From an uncultured bacterium (GTDB taxonomy: Bacteria > Bacillota_I > Bacilli_A > RFN20 > CAG-826), in NCBI GenBank assembly GCA_949291375.1, contig CASEVI010000002.1:40069-104068 (forward strand): a stretch of 64,000 bases of DNA, given 5' to 3'. The translations under genes and the position numbers were made by a program. This document shows positions 20,589-32,198 of the stretch, piece after piece; within the stretch, counting starts at the first letter, position 1, and each line of letters opens with the position of its first letter. The notes beneath the pieces are model-generated. The model saw only the letters and a list, made by a program, of their open reading frames with translations, was not told where the DNA came from and made no database searches.

Positions 20589-23500
20589 CTAACCTATTAC
20601 AACCGTTCCATAATCATAAAGGATATTATAGCAGCTTGTTACATCTTCTCCTTTTTCATTAACAATCTTAGTAATAATAACTACGTTTTGATAAGTTGAA
20701 GGATTTGAAGCATTTTTAATTAGAATCATTGAACCAACAATTTTATCTCCATCTGCTAATCCATCAACTTCATATATTTCTTCATCCTTTAATGAAGAAA
20801 TATTAATAAGTGAAGAATTAAAACTTTTAGTCCTAATACTTAAATCTCGTTTAGTAACTGAAATAGTTCCAGTGCTTTTTTCAATTAAATATTCATCATT
20901 AACAACATTTCCATCTTCATCTTTTATAACGAATGAGAAGTCATTAGTGGTTTGACCCACTTTTGTAATAGTGCTCCATCCATTAACTTCAATATAGTGA
21001 CCTTCTTTTAAATCACCTTTAATTTCATAATCTCCATAACCATGTTCTTTACCATCATAAGTAAAGCTTTGTGTACCTGAATAAATATGAAGACTAAAAT
21101 CAGTTAATTCGCCTCCGCCGATAGTTGTATCTCCGCCTTCTCCTTCGCTCGGATTTTCTGGATCATCATGTGTTTGATTTTCAGGATCGTAAGTAGTATC
21201 TTCCAAAGCATTTCCTTCTTCTTCAGCTCCATCTGGAACAGGAACTTTTTCACCTTCAGCAAGTGGAGCAACAGTAAATTCAACATTAACCCAACCCTTT
21301 CCATCAACATAAACTTCACAAATTGCATGTCTTTGTAAGGCTATAACATCATATGTTTTACCTACCATTCCACCATTAATACAGACTCCGCGAGCAATTC
21401 GAGTAGGATATCCCATAGCCCTAAGCAATAAAGCTCCTCCACCAGCAAAGAATTGGCAATATCCAGCTTTAGTTTTAGTTAAAAAATCTATTAAAATATC
21501 ACTAGAATTAGGATCTACTAAATCAGTGTGTTTACCGAAAAAACCATTATTTTTAAAATAATTAATTATATTATTGCAACTACTTACTAAATCACTTCCT
21601 TTTAAATGATGGTTATTAATTATTTCATTTAAAGCATTTCTTTGATAAGAATTTAAAGATAAATAATTTTCATAAACAAATTTTCGATACTCTCTTTCCT
21701 CGTTTTTAACATTTTCATCTTTAAATTCAGCATTATCGATTAAATCGTGATCATCTAAATAATTAAAAGCAAAGCCTTCAACATTAATAGTTTTTGTTTT
21801 TAAATCACTTACTATAACAGATAAATCAGTATTTTGTTTATTAGGAAAGAAAGTATAGTAAGGATAAGTATCAAATTCTCTGTAATTTATTTGTGTATAC
21901 TCAAGTTTTCCTGCAAATGTATCCATTTTACCTTCTAACAAATTAGGAATAAATTCATATACATCAATACCATATTTAGATTTATATTCTGTTCCTTTAG
22001 TCCATTTTTTACCATCATAAACCCCAATGCTTTGGCCTCTAAAAAATGCAGAGCCTGATTTTGTAGGAGTGTACCTCATAATTAAATTATCTAATAATTT
22101 AGTATCTACATCCTGAAATTGTTCAAAAACTGTTTCCAAAGTCGAAGAATCACCACCCCCTGGTGCAATACCGGTACCTCCTTCGCCTTCGCCCGTTCCA
22201 CCTTGACCAGAGCCTTTAATGATTTTAACCTTTCCAGGAATAAAATTAATTTGATAATCATTTGTAACATCTGTATTGAAATTATTATTTTTAATAGAAA
22301 AAGTAAGATTATTATCGTATTCGCCAATTTCTTTAAAAACACTAGAATTTACAACGGAAATTACATCCCCTTCTACTAATTGCCCATCCCATGAATATTC
22401 AGGCCAGGATTGTTCTTTACCAGTATAAGGAAGAGTGACGCTTTGAGAACATATAGTAATTGTTCTTTTAGAAACTGTAAAACTACCTTGTGTCAAATTA
22501 ATTTCATAATTTTTAGTATAATCAGTTCTTCCAAGTTCATCATAAATTTTAACAGTTAATTCACCTTTATGCGTACCAGCATGTAAAGTGTCATAACCGC
22601 TATTATTATATAAATTTATTGTATCTCCATTTAATAAATCACCTGAAACATTTAATCGAGCAATATTATTATAAATTTGCCCATCATAAATTTTATCATC
22701 GTAACTAATATTAACTGAAATTCTTCTTGGATTAATTTTATATTTACCACAATCAAAAGTAACTGTATAGCTATCGTTTATGATAACTCCGTATTTATTA
22801 TAAATTTTAAACGTTGGTTTATTATCGTAAGTTCCTACATTAATATAACTAGGCATTTCTAATTCAATTCTATCGCCATTAATAAAACTTCCTTCAGTGA
22901 TTTTATAAGAAACTTCACCACTAGAAACTTTTCTATCATAAGTTTTAGTAAAATCATTTGTTTTTATAGTCACTTCTCTAGGTTTAATTGTAACTCTCGA
23001 ATCAGAAGTATAATCTACATCATAAAAACTTGTAACATCTCGATTAGCTTTATCAGTGAATTTTAAAGTTGGACGATTAGCAAATGAACCACCATTAATA
23101 AAATTTTGCTTATTAACTATTTCAACTTTATCGCCTTCAAAAAGAGTTCCATTTGTTAACTCTAAATTATCAGTATTATGACTTGTTCCATCATAAGTAA
23201 ATTCATCTTTTGAAGTAAAAGTTACACTACGAGATTTTAAAGAGACTTCATAAGATGATTCAAAATTAAAATCATAACAATAAGTAACATCTTCTCCTTC
23301 ATTATTAATAATTACAATACTATTTGGATCAAAACTTACGATAGCTTTATTTTCATTAAAGCTATCGTAATTAAAATAAATATCTAATAATTTATCATTA
23401 TCTAGTAATGATAAATTTAAAGAAGGAGTATTACCATAAACAGAATATAAAGACGAAACTGTTACATCAACACTTTTAGGTAGGATAGTAAATTCGGTTT

Positions 23501-30215: not shown

Positions 30216-32198
30216 TTATCCATTACCTTCAGCCTTTCCACACCAAATACAATAACCATCAACAAATTTATGATTTTGGTAATTTATTTTTCCTTCAACT
30301 TTATATGTTTTCCCACATATATGGCATAAATATTCAGTATAAGATTTTTCTACACATGTGCCTTCAAAACTAGAAGCAACTTCAACATCCATTTTGTTGA
30401 TTATCTTACCATTTTTATCTATAAAAAATGAGGCATCATCATGGACACATTCACTTAATAGATATGTAGAATCTTGTTTAAAATAATATGAAACATTATA
30501 GTTTGATTTAGTAATTTTACTATATTTATAAATATAAACTTCATCACAAGTTATTCCTATAAAAGAGGTTCTTTGCAAAGCGATAGGTTCATAATAAATA
30601 ATTAAATTTCCATCGATAACTGAGTCTCTAAAAACATTTAATCCAAGAGCTAATTCAGGATTATTTAAAGTAACATTTTTTAAAGTTTTAATACCCGCAA
30701 AAGCTTTAGAATTAATTGTATCTAAAGTTTCATCAACATAAATTTCTTTTAAAGAAGTATTTTGAAAAGAAGATTGTCCAATACTTTTTACTTTAGATAA
30801 ATCGACATATTCTAAAGATGAACAGTTTAAGAAAGCTTCATTTTCAATACTTATTTCACCTGAAAAATAAAGTTTTTTAATATTTGTATTTTCTTTAAAA
30901 GCACCTTCTCCTATTGAAACAACTTTATAACCATCTATTTCTTTAGGAATATATAAGGTATTTAATTTTACACTTGATTCAGTAATTCTTATTCCTTCAT
31001 TTTCATTATCTTCATTAATGAATTCATAATTTAAATAGTTTTCAATATTTCGATAAATATTTAATTCATAAGAAGCATAAAAGTTAGCTCCTAAAGAAGT
31101 AATAAAAATAAGTATGAAAACAATTAATGAATATAAAACACCTTTAATATGAAGAGTTTCACATTTAACACCATTTTTATTTAAATATTCATTATATATT
31201 GCTTCGTTATTTATATATCTAAACTTTTTAAAATATAAAGTATTATAAGTAATCCTTAATTCTTTGATATTTTTATTTTTTTTAATATTAATTTTTTTAA
31301 AATGTTTATCAACGTTATAAGGGAAAGATAAAATAGGTTCGTTATTTTCATTTATTGCTTTTATAACGATTTGCCCTTTTAAAAATTCTCTTTTTTTAGT
31401 CAATTTAACAATAAAATATTCACTATTTTCTTTTTTATCCTTTTTAGCTATAACTTTAAATCTTAAATATTTATAAATATTAAATTCTTTATTTTCACTT
31501 TCTTCTTTTTTCTTATTTTCTTTAAAAGCAAATCTTTTTTCTTTATTTAAAAAGAAAAGAATTAAAAAAGAAGTAACAAAAGTTAAAAGAAATAATATTG
31601 CTCCCACTATATAAAAAGAAGGAATAAAAAATACTTTAGATACTAAATTTTCCCATGAATCATAAATAGTTGATGGAGAAAAAGAAAGAGTAATTAAATA
31701 GATTAAAAAATAAGTTATTGTAGCACTTATACTAAAAAATAAAGAAGAAAGAATATACTTATAGACACTCTTTTTAATATCTTCAGTTTCTATAAAATAG
31801 ATATCATTAACATCAATGATATCTATTTTAAAAGATGAAGCATCTAAAGGAAGTTTAACTATATAATCTTCTTTATAGTTATTTAAAATATCTTTAATAT
31901 TTAATATTTTTAAAACTTTTTCATTTTTGTAACATACAACATTAAAATTAATATATTTAACATTACCTTTTAATTTTAACGCTAAAAAACGATTATTCCC
32001 TTCTTTAATAATCTTATAAGAATTAACATATTCTTTATATTTACTTTCAACATCAAATAAAGCATAATTCTTTTCATTTGATGAAATTAAAGTATCTTCA
32101 TCAAATTTTTTAACATATTTAACCTTTAAAAAGAATAAGCCTAAAAGGAGGAATAAAGCACTAATAATTAATGAAATAAGTAAAAATAAAAAGTTCAT
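30216..32198 (-). CDS. Polytopic membrane protein with a C-terminal BspA-type leucine-rich repeat domain and a Cys-rich (zinc-ribbon-like) tail
   Basis: Four or five hydrophobic helices in the N-terminal 370 aa. BspA-like LRR units: LYIPKEIDGYKVVSIGEGAFKENTNIKKLYFSGEISIENEAFLNCSSLEYVDLSKVKSIGQSSFQNTSLKEIYV. C-terminus: C..C..C...CxxC...CxxC. Confidence 0.68.
   Translation of the reverse strand: MNFLFLLISLIISALFLLLGLFFLKVKYVKKFDEDTLISSNEKNYALFDVESKYKEYVNSYKIIKEGNNRFLALKLKGNVKYINFNVVCYKNEKVLKILNIKDILNNYKEDYIVKLPLDASSFKIDIIDVNDIYFIETEDIKKSVYKYILSSLFFSISATITYFLIYLITLSFSPSTIYDSWENLVSKVFFIPSFYIVGAILFLLTFVTSFLILFFLNKEKRFAFKENKKKEESENKEFNIYKYLRFKVIAKKDKKENSEYFIVKLTKKREFLKGQIVIKAINENNEPILSFPYNVDKHFKKINIKKNKNIKELRITYNTLYFKKFRYINNEAIYNEYLNKNGVKCETLHIKGVLYSLIVFILIFITSLGANFYASYELNIYRNIENYLNYEFINEDNENEGIRITESSVKLNTLYIPKEIDGYKVVSIGEGAFKENTNIKKLYFSGEISIENEAFLNCSSLEYVDLSKVKSIGQSSFQNTSLKEIYVDETLDTINSKAFAGIKTLKNVTLNNPELALGLNVFRDSVIDGNLIIYYEPIALQRTSFIGITCDEVYIYKYSKITKSNYNVSYYFKQDSTYLLSECVHDDASFFIDKNGKIINKMDVEVASSFEGTCVEKSYTEYLCHICGKTYKVEGKINYQNHKFVDGYCIWCGKAEGNG

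Follow-up and report, generated by a model that had tools for sequence, protein, structure and literature searches.

A compact module of six genes was identified on the minus strand, at positions 20589-32198, of a 64,000-nucleotide (nt) stretch of DNA from an uncultured bacterium (the window, to whose whole length all coordinates refer). The six open reading frames (ORFs) were confirmed head to tail, with short gaps and in an order that recurs in relatives, as expected from the compact unit described in the initial annotation; they encode a membrane protein with leucine-rich repeats (LRR), the GTPase B1, the McrC-like protein C, a second GTPase B2 and two transglutaminase-like (TG) proteins, TG1 and TG2 (Table 1). 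The composition and the ancestry of the module are well supported, and a function is proposed here in conditional terms. At somewhat short of an even chance, we read the module as a nuclease-free, membrane-tethered GTPase motor derived from McrBC (NxD or CoCoNuT-like branch) that has been re-wired to control surface enzymes of the transglutaminase or protease type with a Cys-His-Glu triad. Neither a publication nor a database name was found for the module, in line with the early impression of an undescribed combination. The motor belongs to a known branch with a named membrane-associated sister group, CoCoPALM; what appears to be new is the pairing with surface TG-fold proteins, the two-anchor arrangement of the GTPases and the breadth of the module in gut Bacillota.

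The GTPases and their McrC-like partner

Both GTPases matched the Pfam family AAA_5 (B1, E 2e-8; B2, E 3.5e-7). B1 contains a Walker A motif (GMSGTGKTS), a Walker B motif (LDEVN) and the signature GTANNDES, an NxD+E variant, and B2, 66% identical to B1 across the last 360 residues, has the same Walker A, Walker B and NNDES motifs. The signature is invariant in 20 homologues, including N268, N269 and D270. In the 'NxD' branch of McrB GTPases the Nx(x)D signature is shortened to NxD and is usually followed by E or D (PMC11090510); judged by these motifs, B1 and B2 carry the NxD+E form that is diagnostic of the CoCoNuT/CoCoPALM branch. McrB was the best NCBIfam match of the GTPases, weak in the case of B1, and the only kind of protein matched by B2 in a phmmer search of the PDB (6ut6, 7vsr and 6hz4; E 1e-6). 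A Foldseek search with the B1 model matched several AAA+ families, among them MCM, dynein, RavA/MoxR and McrB, so the assignment to McrB rests on sequence and not on fold.

Transmembrane (TM) segments were predicted from Kyte-Doolittle hydropathy and their sidedness from the positive-inside rule. In the AlphaFold2 model of B1 a TM helix (residues 3-38) is followed by a disordered linker and by the AAA+ core with its lid, the remainder being short helices only, with no coiled coil. B2 starts with a TM hairpin formed by helices 12-30 and 46-64. No Pfam domain was found at the N-terminus of the GTPases, where a TM helix or hairpin and a disordered linker stand in the place of a DNA-binding domain; FtsB/DivIC gave no Pfam match at E<=0.1, and the TM helix of B1 has no coiled coil after it. 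Hydropathy and Pfam agree with the membrane-tethered McrB-family GTPases, the anchored TG-fold proteins, the polytopic BspA-type LRR protein and the C protein devoid of TM segments that were described at first.

The best plasmid relatives of the GTPases are 34-38% identical to them (E down to 6e-56). The two that were inspected lie in operons with a kinase, a large AAA protein, a hypothetical protein, an AAA ATPase and a DUF2357 protein, and these operons are apparently of the CoCoNuT type, with CnuB-like GTPases. Motifs shared by the module GTPases and these plasmid GTPases include NIARVEYYFAEFLSLLE, and the CnuB sequences in the supplement of PMC11090510 share blocks with B1 and B2 such as LDEMNLARVEYYFADFLSLLE and VNMDET. 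The initial annotation found the operon to resemble neither McrBC nor CoCoNuT systems; by descent this was wrong, given the NxD+E motif and the plasmid relatives in CoCoNuT-like operons.

Protein C had been described as mostly coiled coil and not a clear McrC. This holds for its C-terminal part, where residues 310-504 form three long coiled-coil-like helices in the AlphaFold2 model and no nuclease was found, but not for its first ~270 residues, which correspond to McrC-N (DUF2357). The Pfam match to DUF2357 is weak (E 6.6e-5, 22.7 bits against a cut-off of 23.3), and an hhalign comparison of the C family profile with the DUF2357 protein of a plasmid operon gave Prob 97.1% and E 6.4e-11 over C residues 58-265. 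Within the domain, at approximately residues 58-268, lie a long beta-hairpin (165-194) and the motif YENKF, which is conserved. Homology to DUF2357 stops near residue 268 and the rest of the model is helical, with no PD-(D/E)xK nuclease detected; a conserved D...ExK is absent among the invariant residues of C, no nuclease family was matched, and the C profile found only long-helix proteins among PDB sequences. These matches place C among McrC-N/DUF2357 proteins, and no nuclease domain was detectable in it. Its family comprises 1,012 representatives at 50% identity (E<=1e-30).

It is very improbable that the module is a known system that went unrecognised, whether classical McrBC Type IV restriction or a MoxR-VWA (Bat) system with a missed partner. 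The general AAA_5 class and the MoxR/RavA fold matches are the only points in its favour. The module shares with McrBC the DUF2357 N-terminal domain of McrC, but it has TM helices in place of the DNA-binding N-terminal domain, lacks a PD-(D/E)xK nuclease in C, shows NxD instead of NxxD and is membrane-tethered. As for MoxR, the sequence searches match McrB instead, and no VWA or DUF58 gene was identified in the operon or in 82 related loci, which agrees with the initial separation of this operon from the MoxR-VWA (Bat) type. Both identities, classical McrBC and MoxR/Bat, were refuted by the absence of the nuclease, of the DNA-binding domain and of a VWA/DUF58 gene.

CoCoNuT systems, with their CnuB and CnuC proteins, were described by Bell et al. 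(eLife 2024, PMC11090510). The module is like them in the GTPase signature, NxD followed by Glu, and in a DUF2357/McrC-N partner without active nuclease and with coiled-coil-like helices. Unlike them, its GTPases have TM helices instead of a fused long coiled coil, two GTPase paralogues flank C, and the partners are anchored surface TG-fold proteins; HEPN or other nucleases, the helicase CnuH and the TerY-P triad are all lacking, and the module is chromosomal with housekeeping flanks.

The surface proteins

TG1 and TG2 both contain Transglut_core (PF01841) above the cut-off (E 4.5e-14 and 4.6e-10, respectively). The core of TG1 spans residues 433-535 of the 726-residue ORF and has beta-rich YDG-like repeats on either side. 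TG2 comprises, from N- to C-terminus, a TM anchor (26-44), ~500 residues of YDG-like repeats, a Gly-rich linker, the core (757-856), an acidic/Gly-rich linker and C-terminal repeats. In each protein a single TM helix near the N-terminus goes with a short basic tail, and both would be single-pass proteins with the N-terminus inside and the rest exposed at the surface.

The best PDB match of TG1 was 6g49 (E 1e-4), a protein-glutamine gamma-glutamyltransferase that we take to be the periplasmic domain of Pseudomonas aeruginosa TgpA; in this alignment TG1 has Glu at the position where 6g49 has Asp. Triads were read from a jackhmmer alignment, which gives Cys-His-Glu for both TG1 and TG2 and corrects the Cys-His-Asp of the initial annotation. 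Among 61 TG domains of relatives the triad was kept in 50, as Cys-His-Glu in 41 and as Cys-His-Asp in 9. The triad has degenerated in some copies, and certain proteins contain up to three TG domains. TG1 and TG2 are thus placed by their matches in the transglutaminase-like (papain-fold) superfamily, as putative proteases or transamidases. TG homologues at other loci present YDG and AgI/II C2 domains, and the length of the TG proteins across the family ranges from ~376 to 2647 residues. The largest, at L043:11084-19029, is a single protein of 2,647 residues, and all three of its cores retain a complete triad, Cys-His-Glu or Cys-His-Asp.

The LRR protein has TM segments at residues 3-21, 153-171, 197-215 and 353-371 by hydropathy, and a BspA-type LRR_5 domain at residues 425-526 (E 8.5e-17) followed by a Cys-rich CxxC...CxxC tail. 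By the positive-inside rule its two lysine-rich loops of ~130 residues would be cytoplasmic, with the LRR domain and the Cys-rich tail extracellular. An internal duplication of the two cytoplasmic loops was considered and rejected, as no similarity was found between them. LRR_5 genes were also identified upstream of the module in Bacilli relatives and at several Clostridia loci.

Distribution, evolution and surroundings of the module

Homologues of the GTPases comprise at least 8,000 clusters at 90% identity, and no functional name was found on the 120 clusters listed. Relatives occur in at least 593 species-level Bacillota genomes (one genome per species). The 78 loci retained all carry Bacillota names, nearly all from metagenome-assembled genomes, and include Bacilli, Anaeroplasmataceae, Acholeplasmatales, Haloplasmataceae, Christensenellaceae, Lachnospiraceae and Oscillospiraceae. 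When the six window proteins were mapped, the order B-C-B-TG-TG was complete in 38 of 82 loci, most of the others being cut by contig ends; the co-occurrence of McrB-like and transglutaminase genes that the initial annotation proposed to look for is found elsewhere. The median intergenic gap in related loci is 15 nt, with 201 of 219 gaps at or below 60 nt. N-terminal TM segments numbered one to three in all 117 B proteins scored (one or two in 115); of 64 C proteins, 58 have no predicted TM segment, and a single N-terminal one is predicted in each of the 110 TG proteins. This recurrence of order in dozens of independent genomes, with tight gaps and a consistent TM pattern, indicates a cohesion of the module beyond chance. 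The relatives being mostly metagenome-assembled genomes, repeats and deletions may reflect assembly.

Going by record names, the closest relatives of the window are uncultured gut Bacilli, such as Candidatus Onthovivens. Compared with L004, the closest locus, identity is 86% for B1, 76% for B2 and 71% for C, and falls to 50% for the LRR protein, 43% for TG1 and 39% for TG2: conservation is high in the cytoplasmic parts, and divergence is fast in those at the surface. Identity of the GTPases is 60-86% in Bacilli and 43-53% mostly in Clostridia and other Bacillota, although record names are inconsistent. Since identity roughly tracks taxonomy and the gene order is kept across classes, mainly vertical inheritance is suggested. 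Synteny of the window flanks is kept only in L004, so it is the module and not its neighbourhood that is conserved. Annotated flanks elsewhere are housekeeping genes (ATP synthase; S6-SSB-S18; ferritin with Fe-ADH) and are not conserved. Carriage by phages or plasmids was considered and rejected: no relative was found in 2.9 million IMG/VR viral contigs, GenBank phages gave only two weak matches, and there was no close plasmid copy, all plasmid GTPase matches being below 40% identity. The module does not look like a mobile defence island.

The two GTPase genes show a particular pattern of evolution. Both B genes are present in 44 loci, and in 21 of these the paralogues share 96-100% identity over their last ~360 residues. 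At the DNA level the shared 3' part was 98-100% identical in the ten loci compared (L029, L057, L028, L033, L021, L066, L024, L032, L012 and L017), with 0-24 differences per 1,077-1,170 nt, mostly synonymous where present. The 5' parts, which encode the membrane anchors, are completely different and unrelated. This combination points to recurrent gene conversion, that is, concerted evolution, and implies one GTPase chemistry on two different anchors. In the lineage of the window the pair has diverged to the 66% given above. Loci L001 and L002 have an identical B protein of 442 residues (P0113), followed by C in one and directly by TG-TG in the other; loci of the B-TG-TG form may be explained by the direct B repeats of 1.1 kb, through recombination or assembly collapse.

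Additional genes precede the module in other lineages. In many Clostridia a protein of ~1,100 residues is encoded directly upstream of the first B gene (L001:6598-9975, L029:6441-9809, L032:3178-6771, L057:6248-9616, L085:2975-6631 and ~35 more loci). In it, a GH3-like region (GH3_C and Fn3-like parts and a weak GH3 N-domain) is combined with a TM hairpin and with an McrB-like domain of divergent sequence. No signal peptide was found in the ten proteins examined, in which Walker A/B-like patterns were absent in eight and weak in two, and these features suggest a cytoplasmic pseudo-enzyme joined to a pseudo-GTPase; a canonical GH3 nucleophile motif was not found in a search by crude regular expression alone. 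Ahead of the module, 10-11 Clostridia loci have genes for a CvpA-like membrane protein of ~500 residues, a paralogue of ~230 residues and a protein of ~200 residues without family match (L001:3785-6576, L032:353-3159, L012:2560-4845 and L020:3702-6630). These three may be further components.

Table 1. Genes of the module in the window, in their order on the minus strand.
Gene	Coordinates	Strand	Length (residues)	Predicted TM segments	Domain
LRR protein	30216..32198	-	660	4	LRR_5
B1, McrB-family GTPase	28910..30202	-	430 (from corrected start)	1	AAA_5
C, McrC-like protein	27386..28906	-	506	0	DUF2357
B2, McrB-family GTPase	26017..27393	-	458	2 (TM hairpin)	AAA_5
TG1	23850..25997	-	715 (from corrected start; ORF 726)	1	Transglut_core
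TG2	20589..23846	-	1085	1	Transglut_core

The called starts of B1 and TG1 are probably too long. The start of B1 is most likely the ATG at 30202, which has an AGGAG Shine-Dalgarno sequence 8 nt upstream and gives a protein whose length matches its homologues (427-433 residues); that of TG1 is most likely the ATG at 25997, with GAGGAG 6 nt upstream. From these starts, B1 begins 13 nt past the LRR stop and TG1 19 nt past the B2 stop; the gaps between B1 and C and between TG1 and TG2 are 3 nt each, and C and B2 overlap by 8 nt. The G+C content of the DNA is 22-30%. In such AT-rich DNA the promoter scan was uninformative (74 promoter-like sites against 84 expected), and the terminator scan gave nothing convincing at the end of the operon.

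Downstream of the module lie queT, tgt, queA and a fusion of queH with a family-2 glycosyltransferase gene. The latter, at 15593-17227 (-), ends this queuosine cluster and joins the epoxyqueuosine reductase QueH to the glycosyltransferase domain in an unusual architecture. Beyond it, a run of short, tightly packed ORFs (563-15400) is taken to be a ribosomal-protein operon. Upstream are a MATE transporter and an M24 peptidase, and then, divergently, an AAA_21 ATPase and RloB-like pair followed by a gene for a Fic-domain protein (36097-39419, +), a cluster of defence or toxin character whose AAA_21/RloB pair is also kept in L004. Further on, a protein of 499 residues (40151-41650, -) has N-terminal TM helices and long coiled-coil-like helices, with a counterpart in the closest relative (L004:1329-2831; E 2.7e-151). 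An ATPase gene with AAA_14 and DUF4143 is found at 61288-62571 (-), and similar genes lie near the module in L086 (L086:1-775).

Four lipoprotein paralogues of ~1,000-1,200 residues were identified at 43147-46746 (+), 49523-52648 (-), 53911-57348 (-) and 58120-61035 (+), with a trypsin-like peptidase gene among them (52928-53737). They have near-identical signal peptides and lipobox (LTVSSC) and a collagen-like G-X-Y stretch of ~30 residues. The initial annotation offered them as substrates of the TG proteins, but no such protein was found in related loci up to 10 kb on each side of the module, and the proposal was dropped.

Possible function and its meaning

The idea that these genes encode a membrane machine driven by nucleotide hydrolysis and acting on surface proteins, as first suggested, is plausible. 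In the mechanism that we favour, B1 and B2 would assemble into an AAA+ GTPase ring on the cytoplasmic side, with a TM helix or TM hairpin as its tether to the membrane. C would insert its McrC-type N-terminal domain into the ring and stimulate GTP hydrolysis as McrC does, and its C-terminal long helices would replace the nuclease as a dimerisation or scaffold element. Helix-helix contacts within the membrane would couple the ring to the single TM anchors of both TG proteins and, in the lineage of the window, to the LRR protein with its four TM segments as well. The nucleotide state of the ring would then govern the assembly, positioning or activity of the two surface TG/cysteine-protease domains on their Ig-like stalks, which would cross-link or cleave surface or environmental proteins, in a form of inside-out control of a surface enzyme. 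The two anchors may correspond to the two TG proteins, with one ring chemistry and two membrane adaptors. This pairing of two anchors with two TG proteins, together with a conserved motor and divergent surface parts, fits the proposal without proving it.

By analogy, the logic of such a mechanism would parallel that of two known kinds of system. In MoxR-DUF58-transglutaminase clusters, such as Pseudomonas PA2875-2873 and the bifidobacterial PFNA operon (PMC8430577), a cytoplasmic AAA+ protein, an adaptor and an outward-facing TG core are likewise encoded in one operon, but the AAA+ protein is MoxR (AAA_3) there and McrB here, and the adaptor is the VWA-like DUF58 there and McrC-N here. The gene for TgpA is transcribed together with PA2875 and PA2874, and its product has a TG domain in the periplasm that shows transglutaminase activity in vitro (PMC3507681). 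TgpA is polytopic with 6 TM segments, whereas the TG proteins of the module are single-pass with an Ig-repeat stalk. LapD-LapG is an example of inside-out control of a periplasmic cysteine protease (PMC3032545). There, the protease outside the cytoplasm, whose target is a giant adhesin, is governed by a membrane protein that senses a nucleotide in the cytoplasm. LapG has a transglutaminase-like fold, but it is soluble in the periplasm, and the control acts through c-di-GMP and EAL-HAMP domains and not through a GTPase ring; the cytoplasmic modules are not homologous, and the likeness is one of logic only.

Several observations weigh against a motor that controls surface enzymes. The coupling of GTPases and TG proteins through TM helices is inferred from synteny alone, TM prediction was by hydropathy only, and the cytoplasmic tails of TG1 and TG2 have only ~6-25 residues, so the coupling would have to take place within the membrane. 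The catalytic Cys is lost in some TG domains. Eight loci have B-TG-TG without C, and these may be products of recombination or assembly collapse between the repeated B genes. Finally, all relatives with a proposed function are defence or conflict systems (McrBC, CoCoNuT), the sole PADLOC match is the defence candidate PDC-M26A, the AAA_21/RloB pair and the Fic gene lie only 4-6 kb upstream of the operon, and the fast divergence of the surface proteins also suits a role in conflict.

These last points lead to the main alternative, an anti-phage or conflict system of the envelope, which we consider rather unlikely. In such a system the LRR and TG ectodomains would sense or intercept phage particles or foreign proteins, or the ring would sense incoming nucleic acid where it enters, and GTP hydrolysis would trigger a protective reaction, for example cleavage or cross-linking of phage proteins or receptors. 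The descent of the GTPases from the CoCoNuT-like NxD branch of Type IV restriction speaks for it, as do the nearby AAA_21/RloB pair and Fic gene, surface parts that diverge far faster than the motor, and accessory genes that differ by lineage (LRR in some, the fusion of GH3-like region and pseudo-GTPase in others). The PADLOC matches to PDC-M26A (B1, E 3e-43; B2, E 5e-37) count in the same direction, but they are limited to the GTPases and span only model positions ~312-433 of 724; the other four proteins of the operon had no match, the component set of PDC-M26 is not complete, and no paper on 'PDC-M26' was found. No nuclease, toxin or nucleic-acid-binding domain was identified in the six proteins with Pfam, PADLOC or NCBIfam, no nuclease family was matched in the immediate flanks and none is conserved across the 82 loci. 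HEPN is lacking as well, unlike in CoCoNuTs whose McrC has no active nuclease, which are always accompanied by HEPN or other nucleases (PMC11090510). The flanks are housekeeping genes and not islands, no relative was found in viral contigs and no close copy on plasmids, and the rough agreement of identity with taxonomy and the order kept across classes suggest mainly vertical inheritance.

Another rival, which overlaps with the mechanism favoured here, is a machine for assembly or export of a surface fibre or adhesin, the Bacillota counterpart of CoCoPALM. In this reading TG1 and TG2, as giant repeat proteins, would be inserted, extended or polymerised by the ring, and their TG domains would form isopeptide cross-links between subunits or to the wall. 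CoCoPALM is a membrane-associated sister group of CoCoNuT, named but not described (PMC11090510): its TM-anchored NxD GTPases, with an FtsB-like fusion of TM and coiled coil, are linked to signal-peptidase-family proteins predicted to act as pilus-assembly factors. The name was found in the literature only in the CoCoNuT paper and its preprint, and one of the supplementary spreadsheets of the former (the one that opens with a Type I-A CoCoNuT sheet) has no transglutaminase, CoCoPALM, LRR or FtsB entry. Judged from its description, CoCoPALM is like the module in an NxD GTPase with a TM-containing N-terminal fusion, in a McrC homologue with coiled coil and in a presumed envelope-related role other than restriction; the module appears to differ in giving no Pfam match to FtsB/DivIC and in showing no coiled coil in B, and it has TG-like partners and no signal-peptidase gene.

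An assembly role is also favoured by the adhesin-like character of the TG proteins, with their wide range of lengths, YDG repeats and AgI/II C2 domains in homologues, and by the TG fold itself, which can form isopeptide bonds, TgpA being transglutaminase-active in vitro (PMC3507681). However, the N-terminal signal-anchor helices of TG1 and TG2 are of an ordinary kind and should suit Sec. The operon contains no sortase, pilin motif or signal-peptidase-family gene, and a domain of the latter family (pilus assembly) was not found in its conserved neighbours either. Some of the genomes with the module are labelled Anaeroplasmataceae, Acholeplasmatales or Haloplasmataceae; members of these groups are generally held to lack a wall, so that cross-linking to it is not a general role. 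Polymerisation is unsupported, and we regard this explanation as unlikely.

The only known role of McrB-type GTPases, to our knowledge, is as motors in nucleic-acid restriction. If the control of surface enzymes by the module is true, a nuclease-less membrane branch with surface TG enzymes would extend the McrB-type AAA+ family to envelope biology. It is conceivable, although we hold it to be less probable than its contrary, that this is the first McrBC-derived machine without a nucleic-acid role: a widely conserved, GTP-driven trans-membrane device of gut Bacillota, lineages named Anaeroplasmataceae and Acholeplasmatales among them, whose ring of one GTPase on two alternative anchors mechanically controls or assembles surface TG/protease enzymes, and thereby a new inside-out class of surface remodelling. 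It would also be a second independent case in which an outward-facing transglutaminase is found together with an adaptor and a cytoplasmic AAA+ protein, and may help to explain the obscure MoxR-DUF58-TgpA systems, in one of which, that of Pseudomonas aeruginosa, tgpA is reported to be essential. Nearly identical GTPase halves joined to unlike anchors amount to a clean natural experiment on concerted evolution. The LRR and TG ectodomains, which evolve fast, may serve in contacts with the host, with phages or with neighbouring cells. The organisms that carry the module belong for the most part to poorly understood and mostly uncultured gut lineages, in which it represents a large block of unannotated gut-microbiome function.

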